Under the pieces are notes generated by a model, which saw nothing but the letters and a program-made list of their open reading frames with translations, ran no database searches and was not told the DNA's origin. Of a stretch of 64,000 bases of DNA, positions 12,455 to 44,736 are shown one piece after another. The stretch comes from a virus. Its lineage: Duplodnaviria; Caudoviricetes. The stretch is taken from IMG/VR virus record IMGVR_UViG_3300022660_000043. One strand, given 5' to 3'. The number at the start of each line of letters is the position of its first letter. Within the stretch, counting starts at the first letter, position 1. Both the position numbers and the translations under genes were made by a program.

Positions 12455-13343
12455 AAGAAGGTTAAAAGACTGAGAATACATCTTCATAATTGCTACGGCT
12501 TAATGACCTTATTGATTAGTCACTTTTCCACTTCCTTTTGGGAAGTACCGCTCATGCCTGCAATTCGTCACCCCAGCACAAGGGCTCCAGGCTTGCTTTC
12601 GCCTTTACAGAAACAATTACTCGATTATCACTCCACTATCAACCTTGCGGGCTGTTCGAGGTTGCTACGCCTCTATAGATTCGTTTCAATCAAATACCAA
12701 ATGCTTGTGACACTTGATATCCCAGATTGCTTACCACTCTGGGCTTAAGACACTTTTCTTTGTTTCCAACAATAGGTTTTTACTCATGACATTGTTTTCC
12801 TATGACAACCGCTCTGCCTACTGAGCTACCGGCGTATAAAAGAGATAAGTGCTAATTATCTCTATAGATAAAATTGGCACGCCGGGTGGGACTCGAACCC
12901 ACGCTAAGTTGAGATTTGACAGAAGACAGACTATTGTTGTAGTTCTCACACCTTTTGAGTGCAAGAATGCTACCCGCCTTCAACACTTTCCTTGGCTTCG
13001 TACTCGTATTTCTTATACCCACCGTAGCAGATATAAATGGAAGTCGCCCTTGCTTGCTAAAACTTGAACTATTTTACTTCCTGTAGCTTACCTTACCTCA
13101 TCAAATCCTTTTGCGTTGAAACCAGCTCCTTGCGAGAGCGAAAATAGTTCAGTCAGTTGACCCTACAACTATTTTCTTTTCATTTCATCATTGACAAGTT
13201 AGAACATGGGGTTAGCATATTCGTAAGAATCTTTTCAATTCTTACAGGTCCCGTCACACATTGCCTGAGGTACTGTTCATCACAGCGGAGTCTTGTCAGT
13301 ATACTCCTTTCATTCCCTTACGGGAAGTTATCGGTCAGGCCCG
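12455..13343 (-). ncRNA. Large structured ncRNA, GOLLD-like, containing a circularly permuted tRNA domain
   Basis: About 890 nt with no credible ORF, starting just after the promoter at 13352. Many GNRA/CAAAAGG hairpins and a 3' ...GUAUUCUCAG end resembling GOLLD as recalled; lies in a tRNA array. Confidence 0.55.
12807..12912 (-). ncRNA. Circularly permuted tRNA-like domain
   Basis: T-arm + CCGGCGU-GCCA (12875-12903) precedes ACGCCGG + D-arm (12811-12835); hairpin spacer between them. Confidence 0.8.
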
Positions 13344-14547: not shown

Positions 14548-15579
14548 TTATAATTTACCTAAAAATTTATACTGAATAGTTGAATTTCTAATAAGCTCAG
14601 AGTCTAACAACTCCATAAGTTCTTCATAACTTTGTATATTAGATAACATATTCAAAACTATGCTGCTAGAACTTAAATGTCGTAAATACATTTTACAAAC
14701 CTTAATAGCATCTTTTAAATGTACAGCAGAATTAAAATTATTTTTATAAACTAGATGTTTTTTTAAAACAGTTATTAATCTTTCTGAAGTTAAATCGTCT
14801 ATAAATTCGCCTTTTAATAAAGCTAAAGAATCTTGAAAGATAAATGGATTTCCCATAGCGCCTCTAGCAATCATTACACTATCTACTTCACAATACTCAA
14901 ACATTCTTAAAACATCCCGAGCATTAAAAAGATCACCATTACCTACTACAGGTATCTTAACTGCTTTTTTCGCTTTCTTAATATTATCTAGACTATTTGT
15001 ATTACATTTATAAGCATCAGTATAAGTTCTACCATGAACCGTAATAAAATCAACACCACAGCTTTCAGCCATACGTGCAAAATCAACAACATTTACAGAT
15101 TTAGCATCCCAACCAGTACGAATCTTTATACTTAAGGGTAAATTAGTAGATGATCTGGCTGCGCGTATAACTTTTTCAGCTCTTTTTAAGTCTTTCAGAA
15201 AACAAGCCCCTTCATTCAAATTAATGATATTAATATTTGGACATCCCATATTTAAATCAATAACTTTAGGCAATGTAGTAACTTTACGACCTAAATATTT
15301 ACCAGAAGATAAAGCCCCTATACAAAAAGCTGTATCTTTTTCAGCAAAACACCGTAGTTGCACGCCAATTGGCTCGGTACTTTCGTAGTCAATAATAGCA
15401 GCATTATTAAAAGTTGTAGCTAACTTATTCGTCTGCTCCTTAAAAAAACCACGAGTTGATACAAACTCTGTAAAACAAAATTCTGCTCCAAAATCTAAAC
15501 AAATTTTACGAAAAGCTTTATCTGTAATATTTGTCAATGGTGCTAGCATAAGCTTCGGCGGAATAAATTTATTACTCAT
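14548..15579 (-). CDS. dus: tRNA-dihydrouridine synthase (DusB-like)
   Basis: LAPL, IDLNMGCP, KIRTGWD, VHGRT, GNGD, MIARGAMGNP motifs. Confidence 0.92.
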   Translation of the reverse strand: MSNKFIPPKLMLAPLTNITDKAFRKICLDFGAEFCFTEFVSTRGFFKEQTNKLATTFNNAAIIDYESTEPIGVQLRCFAEKDTAFCIGALSSGKYLGRKVTTLPKVIDLNMGCPNINIINLNEGACFLKDLKRAEKVIRAARSSTNLPLSIKIRTGWDAKSVNVVDFARMAESCGVDFITVHGRTYTDAYKCNTNSLDNIKKAKKAVKIPVVGNGDLFNARDVLRMFEYCEVDSVMIARGAMGNPFIFQDSLALLKGEFIDDLTSERLITVLKKHLVYKNNFNSAVHLKDAIKVCKMYLRHLSSSSIVLNMLSNIQSYEELMELLDSELIRNSTIQYKFLGKL

Positions 15580-21391: not shown

Positions 21392-21530
21392 TGGTCACGC
21401 TCATCGGATTCGAACCGAACCACCGCCTCATCAAACCAGGCAGTATGCTACCCTTACACCATCTTTACGCTAATCCTTGCCTTCCTACTTCGGAGCTTGT
21501 ACAGGGCTCTGGTGAAGTAGCTTGTACGTG
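21392..21530 (-). ncRNA. Aberrant tRNA-like RNA (insertion before D arm, 9-nt anticodon loop)
   Basis: CACGT/GCGTG-ACCA, D arm GGTGTAAGGGTAGCAT, CTGCCT-GGTTTGATG-AGGCGG, canonical T-loop. Confidence 0.6.
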
Positions 21531-23157: not shown

Positions 23158-23799
23158 CTAAATAATTTGATAACACCAAATATAACCATAAGCGGTTTTA
23201 CGTTTACCGTTACAAACATCAGCAATATGTCCAGCTGAACCACGATCTGTTTGTTTATTTTGCACTTTACCTAAAGCTTTCACAGCAGCTAAAGTAGACG
23301 GAAAGGTTGCAATATATTCACCCGTAAGTGAGTATTGTTCAACAGCTTTTCCAGTTTTTTCTAATAGCACCTCAGAAGATGTTCTCACATCAACTTGCTT
23401 AATTCGTAAAATTTTACGAACTGTTTCCCGGTGGATATTAAGTCTGTCTGCTACGGCTGAAATGGTACCGAGTTGTTTATATGCAGTAACCACTAAGTCA
23501 TAGTCTAAGTATTTTTTACCATCGCCACCCAAAGTAGCATTATAGCCCTGCTTATAGGTCTGCTTAGTCGAAATCCAAAATATTTCACGTTCTTCGGGTG
23601 ACTCTGTTTCTTCCAATAATTCAATATGAAAATGTTCAATACCGTACTTTCGCATTGCAGCATATAAAGGACGTTTTTCACAACGATTGCGAAAAGCTTC
23701 TTTACAATGCTCTTTAAACCTACGCTCGATTGCAAATTCAGTCTTCCCTATATAACTTTTATTATTTATGTCATTAATAATTTCATAAATATAAGCCAT
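23158..23799 (-). CDS. GIY-YIG homing endonuclease with NUMOD1-like C-terminus
   Basis: YIY...YIG, RFxEH, GYN, KTAYGYIW; free-standing within the tRNA array. Confidence 0.9.
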   Translation of the reverse strand: MAYIYEIINDINNKSYIGKTEFAIERRFKEHCKEAFRNRCEKRPLYAAMRKYGIEHFHIELLEETESPEEREIFWISTKQTYKQGYNATLGGDGKKYLDYDLVVTAYKQLGTISAVADRLNIHRETVRKILRIKQVDVRTSSEVLLEKTGKAVEQYSLTGEYIATFPSTLAAVKALGKVQNKQTDRGSAGHIADVCNGKRKTAYGYIWCYQII

Positions 23800-25013: not shown

Positions 25014-25205
25014 TGGCTGGGGTGGCAGGATTTGAACCTGCGAATCCGGGAGTCATGGTGCCTGAGGTGAGATTTGAACTCACGACGAGGTGCTTTCCCC
25101 ATAGTCTAAGTAGTTTCCATCTTAGCATTTCGGGTTGGTCCCCAGCTCTTCCAGACTGAGGTACTCAGACAAGTCCCGTGCCTTAACCAACTTGGCCACA
25201 CCCCA
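25014..25205 (-). tRNA. trnQ: tRNA-Gln(UUG) interrupted in the anticodon by a 115-nt tRNA-like insert
   Basis: 5' part 25205-25171 (TGGGGTG...CGGGACTT) + 3' part 25055-25014 (TGACTCCCG...CACCCCAGCCA) joins into a canonical 77-nt tRNA-Gln. Confidence 0.9.
25056..25170 (-). ncRNA. Nested tRNA-like element inside tRNA-Gln anticodon
   Basis: GTCTGAG/CTCAGGC-ACCA acceptor, D arm, T arm GTGAG-TTCAAAT-CTCAC; anticodon arm replaced by about 60 nt. Confidence 0.85.
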
Positions 25206-25294: not shown

Positions 25295-25369
25295 TGGTGG
25301 ATAAGGTAGGAGTCGAACCATACTTCCCGCGGGACGTTTAACGTCTGCATTCCACAATGCTACTTACCC
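25295..25369 (-). ncRNA. tRNA-like RNA with collapsed anticodon loop
   Basis: GGGTAAG/CTTATCC-ACCA; GACG-TTAAA-CGTC; TTCGA T-loop. Confidence 0.65.
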
Positions 25370-25914: not shown

Positions 25915-26002
25915 TAGTACCGCGATAGAGGATTCGAACCTCACCTTCAGCGCAGATTTAACTGCCAGGACCAATGCTCTACCAATTAAGCTAGCACGCG
26001 GA
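25915..26002 (-). ncRNA. Degenerate tRNA-like RNA
   Basis: Canonical D arm GCTTAATTGGTAGAGC and T-loop, irregular anticodon region, no CCA. Confidence 0.55.
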
Positions 26003-26948: not shown

Positions 26949-26956
26949 TTTTATTA

Positions 26957-27073
26957 AGACCAAGCTAAATGAAAGCTGGAGCTCTCCCATCTGAGCTACA
27001 TCCCAAAGCGGAATGACGGGGCTCGAACCCGTGACCACCAGCTGGAATAATCAAAGAAATAAGCATTGGTTCT
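26957..27073 (-). ncRNA. Family A RNA with permuted tRNA domain (YrlA-like)
   Basis: AGAACCAAUGCUUAUUUCUU...T-arm, loop-closed acceptor, D-arm...AGCUUGGUCU. Confidence 0.85.
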
Positions 27074-27091
27074 AGTATATTATACAATAGA

Positions 27092-27700
27092 TTAACAAGA
27101 AATTTGACTTAAATTTGTAATTGTTCGATCAAGTTTTTCTTGAGTCCACCAACCATAGGTGTCTAAAATATCAAGATTAGCCTTAAGCTCATACAGCTTA
27201 TCGAGAATGGCCTGTTTCTGCTCTTCTGTGATATGTCCAACACGATGAACTAACCTAGTACGCTCAACTGACACGATTGAAGCAGTATTAAAAGAGCTAG
27301 GAAATCTTAAATTACAAGCAGTATGATTAGGAACCTCTACAAGATAATCTAGAAGCGAAGCAGGATGGCTAGTAGTTAACTGAAAACCATAAACTCTAAA
27401 AGCATTCGCATAAATAACAAGAAGTGGACGACGAATATGATCTAAGTTAATGTTTCTACCATACTGAAAAAGATCTGCAACAAGAATATCACCACGCTGA
27501 AACTCTACTAAGTCTGTTCCATAATCTTCTGTTATATCAGCAAAAGGTAAGTCTTGATACTCAACTTCTTCTTGCCACCCAAGATTAGGGTCGAGATCAA
27601 GTGCATCAGCAAAAGGAGAAGGTTTTAAATCCTCATACAAAGAACTTAAAACATCAAACACATTATCTTCTTCACAGATATAAAAACCGTCCTCTCTCAT
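27092..27700 (-). CDS. PemK/MazF-like endoribonuclease with acidic N-terminal extension
   Basis: FQRGDILVADL...RRPLLVI...QLTT...IVSVERTRL..RVGHI; start reassigned to the ATG after AGGAG. Confidence 0.75.
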   Translation of the reverse strand: MREDGFYICEEDNVFDVLSSLYEDLKPSPFADALDLDPNLGWQEEVEYQDLPFADITEDYGTDLVEFQRGDILVADLFQYGRNINLDHIRRPLLVIYANAFRVYGFQLTTSHPASLLDYLVEVPNHTACNLRFPSSFNTASIVSVERTRLVHRVGHITEEQKQAILDKLYELKANLDILDTYGWWTQEKLDRTITNLSQISC

Positions 27701-27721
27701 CATAACTCCTCTAAATAAAAC

Positions 27722-27865
27722 GGCCAAGCTAATATATACGTTGCTCTACCACTGAGCTACAATCCACGAGTATTGGCCTTATTCAGGCAGTGCCTCCATC
27801 GGAAAGGTAGGACTCGAACCTACGACCTACGGCTTAGCAGGCATTAAGAAATAAGCATTGGCTCT
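27722..27865 (-). ncRNA. Family A RNA with permuted tRNA domain (YrlA-like), enlarged acceptor loop
   Basis: AGAGCCAAUGCUUAUUUCUU...GUAGGUUCGAGUCCUAC...GCUCAGUGGUAGAGC...AGCUUGGCC. Confidence 0.85.
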
Positions 27866-30647: not shown

Positions 30648-31589
30648 TTAATGTGCATTTACATCTGCTTCATGAATAGTATCAATATACCACTTCCAAT
30701 GAGAATCAAGCTTCTGATAATAACCTGAATTAAAGAAAGGCTCCATGTGCGTTGAGATAATCCAGCTTATAAGACAAATATCAGACATCTCTACATCACG
30801 TATCAAATGGTCAGGATCTAAGAACAAACCATATGCTAAGTAGCCACCGACACAGTGATGATCATAATAATGCGCAACATCTTCACCAGGCTTAAAGAAT
30901 TTAGTATAAGGCTTTCCAATATCATGCCAATAAGCTGCCTTAGCAAGCTTGTTATAAGCTGAATACTCTATTATATCAGTAGTAGCTGCGCCCTTATCAA
31001 TAATATTAACATGAGCCTGCATACAATGTTCCCAAATGCCTAACGTATGATGTGGATTGTCATGGGAGATATGTAGGTCTGAAGCTTTAGAAGCAACATA
31101 CTTAACCTGATCAAAGTCGTACTGATTTAGATGAACTTCAATCTTATCAAAGCCTTCATCAAGCCAAGGGCTTTGCCAGCGACGAAGCATCTTATCAATT
31201 ACGGCAGGACCTACCTTACGATCTCTAAAGCTGTCACGACGAATACACTCTTCAGGCTCTGCCCACACTATATGGCACTCTACAGTATCATGAGTGGGAT
31301 GAGCACATGCTATAGCTGACTTACGTGCCTTTCTGGTAACGTTAGTAGCATCATAAATGACAGTCTTATCTGCTCTAAGGTCTTCAATAGTGCGCTGTCT
31401 CATGAGCTCAAAAACTCTGCCATTATCTTCCTGAGAACCTGCATCCCCAAAAAGCTCTTCTCTGATAGCATCAGACGAATGAATTACAGTAACGCCAGTG
31501 CAGATAGCATCATCAACAGCCTTAAACTGCTCCGCATAATAACTCTTACCACTTCCAGGTAAGCCGACTAAAACAATCAATCTTCCCAC
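30648..31589 (-). CDS. Polynucleotide kinase (AAA_33) - HD phosphohydrolase fusion
   Basis: GLPGSGKS P-loop, SSDAIR, YDATN; HH..WEH, HDIGK, H..HM..D HD motifs. Confidence 0.88.
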   Translation of the reverse strand: MGRLIVLVGLPGSGKSYYAEQFKAVDDAICTGVTVIHSSDAIREELFGDAGSQEDNGRVFELMRQRTIEDLRADKTVIYDATNVTRKARKSAIACAHPTHDTVECHIVWAEPEECIRRDSFRDRKVGPAVIDKMLRRWQSPWLDEGFDKIEVHLNQYDFDQVKYVASKASDLHISHDNPHHTLGIWEHCMQAHVNIIDKGAATTDIIEYSAYNKLAKAAYWHDIGKPYTKFFKPGEDVAHYYDHHCVGGYLAYGLFLDPDHLIRDVEMSDICLISWIISTHMEPFFNSGYYQKLDSHWKWYIDTIHEADVNAH

Positions 31590-37340: not shown

Positions 37341-38318
37341 TTAATTTTTAGAGCTATTTTTAAAAACTTTAGTAATGTTGTCAGCTGTAAAATCTTCTTT
37401 GTTCAGAATACGAACAGGTCGACCATATTGATAGGTGCCAGGCAAAGGAATTCCAGGAATTTGAGAGCCATTTACGATACACTCAAATTTCTCTACACCT
37501 TTCTCATCAATATAAGGCATACAACCATCCATAGTAATAGCCTTCCAATAAATACCCTGCATATCCTCACAGAAATGATGCGGATTACCATGAATAGCTC
37601 TTGTTTTGACTAGAATATGATAGCCACCTGAGGTATCAATAATTAAGTAATTACCCAAACCAAATCTTTGGTTAAGGCTGTCAAGCATCTGACTATAATA
37701 GCCTTGGTACCCACAGGCATGATCCTTAAACCACGGCGGAACATCGAGATCAAAGTCAAGCCAATAAACTGAACCCTTACAATGAGCTCTTGCATGCTTT
37801 ACATTGCTTTCAATATTGCTGAAATTTTGATATGACTGCAAATTAGCGTCAAGTGTCTTACCGTTCAACATTGCTTTAACGATAGCTGTCTTAGTATCAT
37901 TAAGCTTCTGCATTACTTCATCAGCTACTTTAAGTTCATCACAAGGATTTACATAAAAGATAGTAGCAATACATTTCTCAGGAAGTGGATAGCCACCAGA
38001 AGTAAGATAAGCTCCCTTATCTACATTAAATCTCTTAAGCTTCTTTACGAAATTAGTCATGTTCCAGCCATCATCTTCGGCAAGATCGGCTGCATCATGA
38101 AACTTTCTAACTCGAAAAGTCTGAGTAGCTAAAAACTCTGCATCCTTTTTTGCAATACCTACCTCAGCTCTTTCCTCTGCAGTAAGCTTCTTAAATCTCG
38201 CTACAAAAACTGCAGCATAAGACTCATTTACTTGTGGCTTCTGAATAACGTGCTCAAAAAACCACTTGAGTTCATCTTCATCTGCAATAACTTCAAAACG
38301 ATCTAAATCTCTGATCAT
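37341..38318 (-). CDS. Possible AEP/PrimPol-like nucleotidyltransferase
   Basis: WLDFDLD (DxD) and DTSGGYH motifs. Confidence 0.5.
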   Translation of the reverse strand: MIRDLDRFEVIADEDELKWFFEHVIQKPQVNESYAAVFVARFKKLTAEERAEVGIAKKDAEFLATQTFRVRKFHDAADLAEDDGWNMTNFVKKLKRFNVDKGAYLTSGGYPLPEKCIATIFYVNPCDELKVADEVMQKLNDTKTAIVKAMLNGKTLDANLQSYQNFSNIESNVKHARAHCKGSVYWLDFDLDVPPWFKDHACGYQGYYSQMLDSLNQRFGLGNYLIIDTSGGYHILVKTRAIHGNPHHFCEDMQGIYWKAITMDGCMPYIDEKGVEKFECIVNGSQIPGIPLPGTYQYGRPVRILNKEDFTADNITKVFKNSSKN

Positions 38319-39019
38319 CGTATATCCTCCAAAAGCTCCCAGTCCATAAATAAGAAGTGCATCTTATCATGGTGTTTGTTTGTATGCCAATGTCCACAGA
38401 ACCAAGCCTTATAATCAAGTTTATCTTCAATCTCATCAAGCCAACGCTCTGTGCTATCGTCTACCTTAGACTGGTCAATACCAGAAATGAACTCCTCAAC
38501 AGGCTCATACTTAAACGGACAAGTATGCGAGAATACCGCATCTACCTTATAATTTATACTATCAAGTTTTTCGGCGACATTTGCTTTAATAGCCTCAGAA
38601 GGCTGTTCACTCTCAAACCAAGCATAACCACTTGCCAAACGATAATATTTATCTACACTATAGGCACCACCAAGAACGAGGCACTGTTTGCCGGCAAGAG
38701 TATAAACTTGGCCATCAATCGCAAACAGAAGCTTTGGATACTGTGGCTGTCTATATACTAGACCACCACCCCAAAGCATAATCTCGTACCCAGCTACATT
38801 CTGAGGTCGTTCCTCGTGATTACCATGAATACAAAGAATAGTAGCTTCAATATATTTATCCAAAGCTTCTTTTAGCCGATCATCTTTTTTATTAAGATAA
38901 TAATTTGCACCGACATCTCCGAGAAGCACAATAATATCATCTTTAGTTACACCAAGTTGCTGGGCTCTATAAATCAAGAACTCAGGATTTCCATGAATAT
39001 CTCCAGTAATATATACCAT
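38315..39019 (-). CDS. Calcineurin-like metallophosphoesterase
   Basis: GDIHG, LGD, GNHE, SHTCP, GHWH. Confidence 0.92.
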   Translation of the reverse strand: MVYITGDIHGNPEFLIYRAQQLGVTKDDIIVLLGDVGANYYLNKKDDRLKEALDKYIEATILCIHGNHEERPQNVAGYEIMLWGGGLVYRQPQYPKLLFAIDGQVYTLAGKQCLVLGGAYSVDKYYRLASGYAWFESEQPSEAIKANVAEKLDSINYKVDAVFSHTCPFKYEPVEEFISGIDQSKVDDSTERWLDEIEDKLDYKAWFCGHWHTNKHHDKMHFLFMDWELLEDIR

Positions 39020-39081
39020 AATAAACCTCCGATACAGTTCTAATATATTATACAACAGGCAAAAAAGAAAAGTTGCGTATT

Positions 39082-39285
39082 TCAGCAACTTTCTTTCTGC
39101 TTTTCTTCCAAAGCTTTATCGATCATATCCCTAATTTCTAATAAGCGTTCTGCAGGGCAATCTAATACTAATTCAAAGTTTTTTGGTACGGCTATTAAAT
39201 CAACACCAACCTTATTTTGAATTACTTTAAACAGCTTCATAAGGTTTTCTTTTGGTAGAGAATCATCATAGTACAGAATGTTCAT
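39082..39285 (-). CDS. Hypothetical protein
   Basis: 67-aa coupled ORF. Confidence 0.6.
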   Translation of the reverse strand: MNILYYDDSLPKENLMKLFKVIQNKVGVDLIAVPKNFELVLDCPAERLLEIRDMIDKALEEKQKESC

Positions 39286-39685
39286 AAGTTATCTCCTTAT
39301 AAAACGGATCTTCAGAGTACTCATAATAATCATCTGCCTCAGAACAGTTATACCAACAAAATTCAACAACACGAATTGCTGAAAATTCAGCTGCCGGCAT
39401 AATCTGAGCAAAAAGCCGAGCAAAAACATTAAACTCAGTTTGATAAAGCTCACGCACTTTGCCCCACTCGCCGTCATTGGCGTCATATTCACGCTCAATT
39501 ACAAAATCAATAAAAGTGCTCTCAGTAGGAGCAAACTGAAATTTGCCTACTTTACCATACTCAAATAAACTCTTAAAATTTTGTTCACAGTACTCTCTAG
39601 CAGCATCAACATCCTCAAACCTATGCTGCCAACCTGTTTTTTCATAAGGAATTCTCAATACCTTTTCTCTTACATAAGTACTCAT
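39266..39685 (-). CDS. Hypothetical protein
   Basis: 139-aa coupled ORF. Confidence 0.7.
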   Translation of the reverse strand: MSTYVREKVLRIPYEKTGWQHRFEDVDAAREYCEQNFKSLFEYGKVGKFQFAPTESTFIDFVIEREYDANDGEWGKVRELYQTEFNVFARLFAQIMPAAEFSAIRVVEFCWYNCSEADDYYEYSEDPFYKEITYEHSVL

Positions 39686-40242
39686 GTTCTAGCCTCCTTA
39701 ACAAAAGTTGCACTTTCATCTGCTACATGAAGAAGCCAAGCCAGAGGGCAATGCTCCCAAGCAGCTGCAATTACATTATTCTCTCCGTCCCAGGTGCCCA
39801 TATGACAATTAATTGATACAGCTTCCTCTGGAAGAAGTCTAATAAAGTTCTGCAGAATAAATACAGACTTACTACCATGTCCACCGTAATGAAGCTCTTC
39901 ATTATGAACATAAGCATCATATGTCTCCCACTTACCCTGAGCATCCTTACGATACTTAACTTCCTTGCCATACATATTTACTTTACACAAATCATGAAAC
40001 AAGGAAATAATAACAAGACTCTCTTCAGAAGCATTGATCTCAGGATAAATAGCAATCAAACGCTTTAACTCATTATATACATTAAGGCTATGTTCAACAA
40101 GTCCACCTTCATAAGCACCGTGATACCGAGTGCTTGCTGGGGCAGTAAAGAAATCACTGTTCTCAAGCCAAGCAAGCAACTCTGGCATTCCTGGTCTCGT
40201 AATAGATTGACACAACGAAATAAAAGTTTCTTTATTTGTCAT
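39682..40242 (-). CDS. HD-domain phosphohydrolase
   Basis: APASTRYH, GGLVEHS, HDLCK, HMG, AD. Confidence 0.9.
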   Translation of the reverse strand: MTNKETFISLCQSITRPGMPELLAWLENSDFFTAPASTRYHGAYEGGLVEHSLNVYNELKRLIAIYPEINASEESLVIISLFHDLCKVNMYGKEVKYRKDAQGKWETYDAYVHNEELHYGGHGSKSVFILQNFIRLLPEEAVSINCHMGTWDGENNVIAAAWEHCPLAWLLHVADESATFVKEART

Positions 40243-41052
40243 TTAGCTCTCCTTGGGAAGAAATCTCTCAATATAGTTTCGGTCCTGTGTAAAAATAGGA
40301 CATTCTTTATCAATATACCACTCAGATCGTGCTGCTCCATTACGCTCTACAGATCTCTTATAGCAACAAACACCACGCTTAAACTCAATAGGCATATCAT
40401 TGAAATTAATACCCTTCTGCCACAACATCTCCTGAATATCTGAAGTAGACTTCTTGTGCAGCTCCTTATGACTAAAGTGTGTTTGTCCAAGCATCTGAAT
40501 GGCATTACGAGTAGCATCTTCTTGCCTCCAGATATACACGTTACAAACTTCTGAGGTAGGAATGCTGAAGCAGCGAGCATCAAACATTGCACCCTTATCC
40601 TTGGCCTTCAGCAGTTCAATAGAATAGTTATCAAGAGTTTTGCCGGCAGTATACTCATTAACATAAGTTCTGAAAGCCTTATTGAAGTGCAAGGTAGCCA
40701 TAGAAGCAGCAATAGAGCACATCTTTTGCACACCGTATCCAAACCAAGCATCAGTATTAATAGTGTCGTAATCAGTCAACAGAAGTGAAATTTCGTCGCT
40801 CTGTGTATATCCAAACTTACAACCCTGGATATTTTTACAAAGATACTGCAAGGTAGAATTCATTGCCTTATGGAAAACCTCGTCATAAGGCTTTTGAAAA
40901 TTCTTACAAAATGAATGAAAACATTTGCCGTCGATTCGAATCACCACAGGAAGCCTTCTGGTAAGATAAGTCTTAGCTCTATTTTCATAATTATTTTTCA
41001 TTCTATCGCCGAGCGAATCTTTTTTATTTGCCATAACATAATTGCCTTTCAT
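40243..41052 (-). CDS. thg1: tRNA-His guanylyltransferase / Thg1-like 3'-5' polymerase
   Basis: RIDGKCFHSF, YTQSDEISL, FDAR, WRQEDATRN, KRG motifs. Confidence 0.95.
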   Translation of the reverse strand: MKGNYVMANKKDSLGDRMKNNYENRAKTYLTRRLPVVIRIDGKCFHSFCKNFQKPYDEVFHKAMNSTLQYLCKNIQGCKFGYTQSDEISLLLTDYDTINTDAWFGYGVQKMCSIAASMATLHFNKAFRTYVNEYTAGKTLDNYSIELLKAKDKGAMFDARCFSIPTSEVCNVYIWRQEDATRNAIQMLGQTHFSHKELHKKSTSDIQEMLWQKGINFNDMPIEFKRGVCCYKRSVERNGAARSEWYIDKECPIFTQDRNYIERFLPKES

Positions 41053-42239: not shown

Positions 42240-43658
42240 TTACATCTCCGCAAGGACATCCTCTGCTACGTCAGCAGTAGACTCGGCAAGCTTCTCGCCA
42301 ATAATTCCCTCAAGAACCTTGAAAGAGAAATTTTTATGCTTGAAAGCAGCAAACTTAGGACGGTTTACGATACGTACCACTACACCCTCACGAGTATGGG
42401 TCTTGCCAACAGGATCAGGACCATCGAAGTAGTCCTCAGCGCAACGCATAATCATATCTCCAAGCTCACCATCGCCAATAAGGTAATCATGATCATAGCC
42501 ATTAGGTGCAGTGAAATGAAGTCTATCCTCAGAAAGAGTAGCCTTACCAAATACAAGAACAGTCTTTACACCCATCTGCTCACAACGGTAACGCATGAAG
42601 TCAGGAGTATACTCTACAACCTCTCCGTCCTCGTTAGTCATAGTCATACGATATACGTAGATATCTGACTGAGGCAGTGCATTTTCAACACCAATTTGGT
42701 TATGCTCTTCATCAAGATAATACCCAACACCATTAGGAGCACAGCCATAGGAGAACACAGTCTCCTTACCATACTGCTTTACAAAGTCTTTACCAAGCTT
42801 CTCGTTATTACCATTACCCATGATAGGTGCTCCAGTGTGAGTAAAGCCTACGACCTCGTAATAAACAGTCTCACCCTTCCAAAGCTTTCCTACAAAAGTA
42901 TCATGATGCTGCTTACGGAACTCATTAGAGCCATAGAAGCCGCCATCAAAAGTATCGAGTACTACACGACGAGTACCAGATACATAGCCCCAGTCATATA
43001 CAGGCTTACCAGGTCTATGAAGAATACGATCCATAATAGATCTCTTATAACCAGTAAGTACCTTCAAATGGCCAGTACGCTGGGAAGTACCATGCATCTT
43101 AAGAGAAAGCTCAAGCTCATCGCCAACCTTGAAAGCTCCAAGATTATACGCAAGCTGCTCAGTATCTGCATGCTCTGCAAAGGTAGGTGCAATAGGTGCC
43201 TTAAACTTACGAGTATGATTACCCTCAGATACATGACCTCTACGTGCCTGAGTACGAGGGATGTACTTAGTGCAAATCTCCTCACCATTAAATACATCAA
43301 TACGGTCTCCTACTCTAAGGGTAGAGATATCACCAAAAGACTCAAGACAATGGAGAGGAAGGAAAAGACCATCAGACTTCTCGCCTCTAAGCTTAATAGC
43401 AGTTACATTTCTCTTATCAGGATCCATGTAGCCACCAATATTATTGCCATCAGCATCCTTCTTTCTAAGAAGGTTATTAGCCTCAGCAAACTTCACAGAA
43501 AGCTGGCCACCGGTAGGGAAATATACACCAAGTTGGCCCTCAGTATAATCAAGAGATACGCAAACAGTGTTACCGAACACATCAGCAAGCTGCAAACGAT
43601 CTGCATTAGGATGCTTTCTAACATCCTTCAAAGTAGTTACAATAGCATAATAACTCAT
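42240..43658 (-). CDS. ATP-dependent RNA ligase with N-terminal tRNA-binding OB fold (DRB0094-like)
   Basis: HPNADRL, KLRGEKSDG, KMHGTS (motif I), YYEVVG, EGVVVR, FKHKN. Confidence 0.88.
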   Translation of the reverse strand: MSYYAIVTTLKDVRKHPNADRLQLADVFGNTVCVSLDYTEGQLGVYFPTGGQLSVKFAEANNLLRKKDADGNNIGGYMDPDKRNVTAIKLRGEKSDGLFLPLHCLESFGDISTLRVGDRIDVFNGEEICTKYIPRTQARRGHVSEGNHTRKFKAPIAPTFAEHADTEQLAYNLGAFKVGDELELSLKMHGTSQRTGHLKVLTGYKRSIMDRILHRPGKPVYDWGYVSGTRRVVLDTFDGGFYGSNEFRKQHHDTFVGKLWKGETVYYEVVGFTHTGAPIMGNGNNEKLGKDFVKQYGKETVFSYGCAPNGVGYYLDEEHNQIGVENALPQSDIYVYRMTMTNEDGEVVEYTPDFMRYRCEQMGVKTVLVFGKATLSEDRLHFTAPNGYDHDYLIGDGELGDMIMRCAEDYFDGPDPVGKTHTREGVVVRIVNRPKFAAFKHKNFSFKVLEGIIGEKLAESTADVAEDVLAEM

Positions 43659-44617: not shown

Positions 44618-44736
44618 TGGCCCAAGACCCAGGACTTGAACCTGGACGCTACCCTGATCATTGATAGCTGATCTATTCCGACCTGCGTCTACCGTGATAG
44701 GACTTACCAACCTGCCTATACTTCCGCCAGCCTTGG
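44618..44736 (-). ncRNA. tRNA-Leu-like RNA with D-loop hairpin insertion and abnormal anticodon arm
   Basis: CCAAGGC/GTCTTGG-GCCA; GCGGAA[insert]GGTAGACGC; T arm CCAGG-TTCAAGT-CCTGG. Confidence 0.65.

Follow-up and report, generated by a model that had tools for sequence, protein, structure and literature searches.

The analysed stretch of DNA, 64,000 nucleotides in length and referred to as the window, harbors a tRNA-Gln(UUG) gene whose anticodon is split by a tRNA-shaped insert of 115 nt. Judged from sequence comparisons, this insert is probably a mobile intron (probability about 0.6), which would be excised in the manner of a pre-tRNA and whose flanking tRNA halves would be sealed by an ATP-dependent RNA ligase. 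The locus is real and under selection, and it is part of a widespread, barely described family of phage inserts. The interrupted gene consists of three parts:

25171..25205, minus strand: 5' exon of tRNA-Gln(UUG), positions 1-34, 35 nt, ending in GGGACTT (U34)
25056..25170, minus strand: candidate intron, the tRNA-shaped insert of 115 nt, GTCTGAG...CTCAGGC ACCA, flush with both junctions
25014..25055, minus strand: 3' exon of tRNA-Gln(UUG), 42 nt, starting with TGACTCCC (U35) and running through the encoded CCA

The 192 nt of the gene correspond to the length of the unspliced precursor. As the preliminary description of this locus had stated, removal of 25056-25170 restores tRNA-Gln(UUG): the joined halves were identified by ARAGORN as a 77-nt tRNA-Gln(ttg), and annotated phage tRNA-Gln genes match both halves. 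The break between U34 and U35 without duplication was likewise confirmed, as alignment with intact relatives places a clean gap exactly between GACTT and TGACTC. The joint expected after splicing is GGGACTT|TGACTCCCG, which is not present in the DNA. Alternative junctions (Pro UGG, Thr UGU) were rejected because they break the inner stem and disagree with the halves, which by identity and alignment belong to tRNA-Gln. In the window, which is a portion of a large phage genome, ARAGORN detected 33 tRNAs on the minus strand, among which a standard Gln(UUG) does not occur; the interrupted gene as it stands is either missed by the program or called as tRNA-Pro. The claim that it is the only UUG-Gln gene in the window therefore applies to canonical genes, whereas a non-canonical tRNA-like element at 21392-21480 (minus strand) also contains TTG. 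This CCA-ended element has a 7-bp stem and a 9-nt loop with the TTG, and is conserved as L005:19018-19094 in a related phage.

The insert itself can be divided into the following segments:

25164..25170, minus strand: 5' strand GTCTGAG of the acceptor stem; G1 is the predicted RNase P cut site and the host U34 is N(-1)
25145..25161, minus strand: D-arm-like hairpin, within a stretch of ~34 nt missing from the orthologous insert of the related phage L286
25084..25144, minus strand: variable middle with small hairpins, canonical anticodon arm absent
25067..25083, minus strand: T arm GTGAG-TTCAAAT-CTCAC
25056..25066, minus strand: 3' strand CTCAGGC of the acceptor stem plus ACCA, with the 3' junction right behind CCA

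The GTCTGAG at the start pairs 7/7 with the CTCAGGC upstream of the terminal ACCA; in a chance control, a 7/7 stem with the same 3' strand occurred at 2 of 3001 internal offsets. In the predicted fold of the unspliced precursor, the pair probabilities are 0.86-0.92 for the inner acceptor stem, 0.96-0.98 for the inner T stem and 0.95-1.0 for the host anticodon stem, while a local CTGAG/CTCAG hairpin, a possible competitor of the inner acceptor stem, has a probability of ~0. Taken by itself, the insert folds with an unremarkable energy (z -1.4); the argument is therefore built on covariation within the family and not on stability. With respect to a canonical tRNA gene, the insert has the 7-bp acceptor stem, the T arm and NCCA, but a 5-bp/7-nt anticodon arm was not found, and small hairpins are located between the D-like arm and the T arm instead. 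ARAGORN did not call the insert as a tRNA unless an intron was invented, and the match to the Rfam tRNA model reached 26.5 bits, below the cut-off of 29. The term complete tRNA-like element in the preliminary description thus claims too much. The absence of a canonical anticodon arm from the sequence indicates that the insert is a tRNA mimic rather than a second decoding tRNA. It harbors all features expected of a bacterial RNase P substrate, namely a 12-bp stack of acceptor and T stems, the T loop, RCCA and U(-1)/G(+1) (criteria according to PMC10731613). In long members of the family, homing endonuclease genes occupy the position corresponding to the variable middle.

The genes flanking the region show an identical spacing of 2361 bp in other JGI and ENA assemblies, a comparison of lengths only, not of letters. 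The preliminary description had pointed to related phages for the same gene with and without the insert, and both forms exist. Phage L286, whose kinase is 82% identical, contains an 81-nt insert at the same base of tRNA-Gln(UUG), and the gene is intact in L002, L005, L282 and L288. The inserts of the window and L286 are identical at 35 of 37 end positions and unrelated in their middles, and the host acceptor stems of the two differ by compensatory changes. L286 carries two inserts in total. The tRNA-Gln(UUG) at L002:6527-6618 has a long variable arm (92 nt), which is unusual in Gln. A search of IMG/VR with an exact-context pattern of the nested Gln gene returned one chance match only, and neither the nested gene nor both junctions were found among the matches listed for cultured phage records.

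The wider family was searched with a pattern of a T loop, CCA and a second T loop 17-18 nt further on, which yielded at least 116 viral matches. About half of the generic pattern matches were ordinary tRNAs plus a 3' fragment and were excluded; many ordinary tRNA genes in the arrays of L033-L148 and L149-L268 directly precede an orphan 3' fragment of a tRNA that includes the T arm. The 5' junction was set from the host tRNA only, by its 7-nt loop, U33, purine 37 and stems. In 45 of 48 unique viral candidates a 7/7 inner acceptor stem begins exactly at this host-defined junction, inner stems slid by 1-3 nt reach 5/7 at best, and the three failing candidates look like false host calls. Among the 120 matches listed for bacterial and archaeal genomes, five are true nested genes, all on tRNA-dense contigs of metagenome bins that are probably phage. 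The full set comprises 50 inserts of 44-880 nt, including the five from genome bins; the inserts are related and their counts do not represent independent events. As the searches demanded CCA or an intact host, decayed cases are under-sampled.

The 50 inserts are hosted by ten anticodons (Leu UAA, Lys UUU, Gln UUG, Ile UAU/GAU, Glu UUC, Thr UGU, Asn GUU, Arg UCU and Pro UGG). Insertion occurred at 34/35 in 26 inserts, at 35/36 in 23 and at 36/37 in one, which makes the proposed link to nucleases cutting between positions 34 and 35 weaker than had been claimed. In every case, removal of the insert gives an exact 7-nt loop with a valid anticodon. Only the acceptor stem, the T arm and CCA are kept throughout the family, and the smallest members are minihelices of 44-50 nt. 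Altogether 41 distinct acceptor stems are present in the set, and in an alignment of 22 inserts 96% of the cells were paired, with 70 double changes, compared with 40-50% in slid controls; the shuffle test of this covariation is inflated by the kinship of the inserts. A scan of close relatives without any assumption on the insert ends detected 12 tRNA-shaped inserts, all 12 of which end in NCCA. Nested inserts outside the strict filter are found in L054, L093 and L141, where the inner element is called as a tRNA by ARAGORN. Some family members may keep a full cloverleaf.

The distribution of the inserts is patchy. For each of Leu UAA, Gln UUG, Lys UUU and Thr UGU, some sister phages contain an interrupted gene and others an intact one. 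Every one of the nine interrupted genes found in five tRNA arrays is the sole copy of its anticodon. After its ortholog, the nearest kin of the window insert are inserts in Lys(UUU) (34/37 positions identical) and four of five inserts in Leu(UAA) (31-33/37), whereas other Gln inserts share only 17-21 of the 37 positions. These nearest Lys(UUU) and Leu(UAA) inserts are all located behind GACTT, at 34/35, in related phages. As the closest inserts reside in Lys(UUU) and Leu(UAA) and not in other Gln genes, we infer that the insert jumped between tRNA genes. A target duplication is absent in 44 of the 50 inserts, and a reverse transcriptase was not found in two near-complete relatives. Genes for HNH and GIY-YIG endonucleases, open under code 15, are located inside inserts of 735 and 880 nt. 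One such endonuclease is also encoded in the window:

23158..23799, minus strand: free-standing GIY-YIG endonuclease in the tRNA cluster

Its catalytic domain shares 40% identity with the one inside the L205 insert, and it possibly acts as a homing helper. Depending on the sister phage, the 34/35 site of Leu(UAA) contains a tRNA mimic, is empty or harbors a group I-like insert. The latter is a G-ending insert of 237 nt in the tRNA-Leu(UAA) gene at L284:10392-10712 (kinase 95% identical), which matches the group I profile weakly (21.8 bits, E 0.002, below the cut-off). A tRNA gene at L273:6875-7410 (G004) has a 464-nt insert in the anticodon loop that is not tRNA-shaped and, by eye, is possibly a group I intron in tRNA-Asp.

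For the excision of the insert the following route is proposed. In the transcript the host tRNA would fold around the insert, whose acceptor stem, T arm and ACCA form the top half of a tRNA in silico. Host RNase P, which leaves a 3'-OH on the leader, would then very probably cut 5' of G1 of the insert, with the 3'-OH remaining on U34. Bacterial RNase P reads the acceptor and T stack, the T loop and RCCA, and prefers U(-1)/G(+1) (PMC10731613). The conserved half of the inserts corresponds to these determinants, which supports the RNase P step. U occupies N(-1) in 31 of 35 lineages, against 24.5 expected, and among the 19 lineages in which the two sites differ it does so in 16; the binomial p of this bias, calculated by hand, is ~0.002 for lineages that are not fully independent. 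The bias could be explained by a nuclease preference, too.

In a second step, an endonuclease might cut directly behind the CCA of the insert, leaving a 5'-phosphate on U35. RNase Z of Bacillus is inhibited by CCA, and its cut would fall upstream of this sequence. The phage host may belong to the Bacillota, with one match labelled Lachnospiraceae; an RNase Z-like fold was not found in the two near-complete relatives. A precise cut right behind CCA is made by RNase E in E. coli tRNA-Pro (PMC5291269). The halves, held together by the acceptor and anticodon stems of the host tRNA, would finally be joined by a phage ATP-dependent RNA ligase; the products would be mature tRNA-Gln(UUG) and the released mimic with its CCA end. 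Two proteins of the window come into consideration for healing and joining the ends:

42240..43658, minus strand: ATP-dependent RNA ligase, DRB0094/Rnl5-like, candidate sealing enzyme with intact motifs KMHG, EGVV and FKHKN
30648..31589, minus strand: polynucleotide kinase-like P-loop and HD-like domain protein, putative end healing

The predicted ligase, which would seal the tRNA halves, possesses nucleotidyltransferase motifs and matches PHROG 968 (E 4e-65), TIGR02306 with 48.9 bits against a cut-off of 151, and NgrRnl weakly. Rnl5 prefers nicks in duplex RNA, whereas the joint in tRNA-Gln lies in a loop. Ends with 3'-OH and 5'-phosphate are sealed by Rnl5 (PMC4408790). Both near-complete relatives encode ATP-dependent ligases of the Rnl2 type, and one of them also Rnl1. 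However, tRNA-rich phages commonly encode RNA ligases whether or not they contain inserts, so the presence of a ligase permits the splicing model and is no proof of it. The kinase would be needed only if the 3' cut leaves a 5'-OH and is superfluous if the ends are of the RNase P type (3'-OH, 5'-phosphate); joining by both phage enzymes, as initially suggested, would in that case be reduced to the ligase. The phage gene could be dispensable if the tRNA-Gln of the host cell suffices. Spread of the inserts would occur by DNA homing via endonucleases encoded in long members or nearby, together with rare jumps into other tRNA genes with the same GACTT flank. The insert probably arose at the RNA level, when a mature tRNA was ligated into an anticodon loop that had been cut.

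With marginally less confidence than the reading of the single locus, but still with better than even odds, the inserts can be regarded as an undescribed mechanistic intron class of the bacterial world: a mobile tRNA mimic with or without homing endonuclease, which tRNA end-processing nucleases would excise and whose exons a phage ATP-dependent RNA ligase would join, with maturation of the tRNA confined to infected cells. Strong backing of a comparative kind exists for the initial idea of an intron that would be freed by tRNA-processing nucleases and sealed by a ligase: the ends are flush in 45 of 48 viral candidates, the stems covary, the host tRNAs are intact and non-redundant, the inserts are patchily distributed, and some carry homing endonucleases.

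Inserts of related design have been noticed before. Devoto et al. 2019 described 'enigmatic' introns in tRNAs of Lak megaphages, one of which may encode a tRNA (PMC6784885, Fig. 4, Table S6), and a survey of 2026 repeats the remark on a tRNA within a phage tRNA intron (PMC13037316). Like the window insert, these introns lie in anticodon loops of phage tRNAs and are present or absent between relatives, and inspection of Table S6 by eye shows a T arm plus an acceptor strand at the 3' end of all four. They differ in having an AT-rich leader of ~25-30 nt before the inner stem and in ending at the discriminator with CCA absent, whereas the window insert is flush from G1 to CCA. The paper holds no formal definition of a Lak-type intron and the comparison is a reading of Table S6, by which the Lak inserts are kin in design to the window insert, not the same. 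In the literature outside subscription journals only these two passing descriptions were found, and the flush G1-to-CCA type, its family, mobility or mechanism were defined nowhere. The proposal of a new kind of intron has to be qualified, as a tRNA inside a phage tRNA intron had already been remarked on.

Several known systems share single aspects with the insert. Group I introns in tRNA-Leu(UAA) and other bacterial anticodon loops occupy the same niche after U34, optionally carry a homing endonuclease and are spread patchily. The window insert differs from them in that a ribozyme core is absent, the end is A and not G, the family extends down to 44 nt, and enzymes in trans are needed. RF00028, searched for the P3-P9 core, gave no match to the insert, which has only 115 nt, up to E 10. 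The U that ends the 5' exon in group I introns is present (U34) and not specific, and the terminal G is replaced by A in all 50 inserts, for which CCA was demanded, and in 12/12 from the unrestricted scan. Archaeal and eukaryal tRNA introns (bulge-helix-bulge, EndA/TSEN, RtcB/Trl1) are likewise removed from the anticodon loop by protein-dependent cutting and ligation, and some archaeal ones carry homing endonucleases. In contrast to these, the window insert lacks the bulge-helix-bulge motif, RtcB and EndA are absent from the two near-complete relatives, and the signal would be the intron's own tRNA shape. The 4-bp central helix between 3-nt bulges is represented by two of four pairs here, and by four of four in none of the 50 inserts. 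As the defining features fail, identities as group I or bulge-helix-bulge introns were rejected. RNase P-processed tRNA mimics, such as tmRNA ends, mascRNA and T4 species I/II RNA, also use acceptor stem, T arm and RCCA as the processing signal and have a free middle. In those cases the mimic itself is the end product and its flanks are lost, whereas the flanks of the window insert would be rejoined. The T4 enzymes Pnk and Rnl1, which repair PrrC-cut tRNA-Lys, are a further example of a phage kinase and ligase sealing a broken anticodon loop, but they repair host damage without an encoded intron, and the window ligase is Rnl5-like, not Rnl1.

The surroundings of the gene in the window are rich in tRNA-related elements. 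Additional tRNA mimics, whose anticodon arms are collapsed or expanded, are located at 25295-25369, 25920-26000 and 44618-44736 (minus strand). Elements resembling Y RNA (YrlA), in which the T and D arms are permuted, were found at three places, 26956-27055, 27714-27847 and 12783-12929 (minus strand); they score below the Rfam cut-off, and relatives harbor similar elements at the same place. The tRNA array also contains a GOLLD RNA above the Rfam cut-off (12467-12982, minus strand). A PemK/MazF-like gene lies within the tRNA cluster (27092-27727, minus strand), and near the corresponding position a ParE/YafQ-like gene occurs in L285 and an endonuclease VII gene in L287. Genes for Dus, a metallophosphoesterase, an HD protein and Thg1 (14548-15579, 38315-39088, 39682-40242 and 40243-41052, minus strand) make up, next to the ligase and the kinase, a set of functions for tRNA maintenance.

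Besides excision as a pre-tRNA, other explanations were considered. The insert could be a removable intron that is cut by a dedicated nuclease of the phage or of host defence sensing the tRNA shape, followed by kinase/phosphatase healing before ligation. This is unlikely, although the exact cut behind CCA is unexplained by known host enzymes, the window encodes the kinase-HD protein, the metallophosphoesterase, the HD protein and Thg1, and the 5' leader preceding the stem of the Lak introns is not removable by RNase P alone. The 5' junction, however, fits the geometry and preferences of RNase P exactly, and an EndA-like gene was not found in relatives. No counterpart of the PemK-like gene is annotated at the corresponding position of L286 despite the two inserts of this phage, and the assignment of this gene as the 3' nuclease was therefore dismissed as unsupported.

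It is less probable again, and altogether doubtful, that the inner mimic is the functional product, serving as a decoy for anticodon nucleases or other tRNA binders, with host halves that are never rejoined and act as a scaffold or second decoy. Several more tRNA mimics without usable anticodon are indeed present in the window, the covariation of the inserts is compatible with selection on the insert alone, and the hosts are mostly U34 tRNAs, which are known targets of nucleases. Context on the latter point is provided by PMC10264068. However, a decoy does not require a location in the anticodon, and the restoration of a 7-nt loop and valid anticodon in every case, the lack of an intact second copy of the interrupted genes and the compensatory changes in host stems all argue against this reading, and the homing endonuclease cargo fits a selfish intron.

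A fossil of mis-repair, in which a mature tRNA was ligated into a nuclease-cut anticodon and copied to DNA and the gene is now dead, is very improbable as the current state. Such an event would account for insert ends that equal mature tRNA ends and for the general lack of target duplications, and the insertion sites at 34/35 and 35/36 coincide with the positions at which anticodon nucleases cut. It does not agree with the recurrence in dozens of lineages with preserved and covarying structure, nor with the lack of a reverse transcriptase in the near-complete relatives, and it is largely refuted by the L286 ortholog, which keeps the ends while the middle changes. Mis-repair, which the preliminary description had offered as an alternative, is thus plausible for the origin only, and the diverged middle of the ortholog and the compensatory host changes oppose it as a description of the present gene. 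An assembly chimera or a mis-annotated pair of adjacent tRNA genes, envisaged earlier as a refutation and conceivable given that tRNA arrays are repetitive and that many generic-pattern matches are an ordinary tRNA plus a 3' fragment, is contradicted by the equal spacing in other assemblies, the orthologous insert of L286 and the clean gap against intact relatives, and can practically be discarded.

To our knowledge, the known tRNA introns of bacteria and phages all self-splice, and splicing of tRNAs by proteins is regarded as a trait of archaea and eukaryotes. What the locus contributes is an orthologous pair of inserts whose ends are conserved, evidence that inserts jumped from one tRNA gene to another, and a site shared with a group I-like intron. 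The inserts would represent a new intron class if they are shown to be spliced by tRNA-processing nucleases and a ligase. Should the mobile tRNA-shaped intron be removed as predicted, phages would have a third splicing route with RNase P as a splicing enzyme, phage RNA ligases would gain an encoded substrate, and the 'enigmatic' Lak introns would be explained. Real phage tRNA genes would then have been overlooked by standard tRNA annotation.
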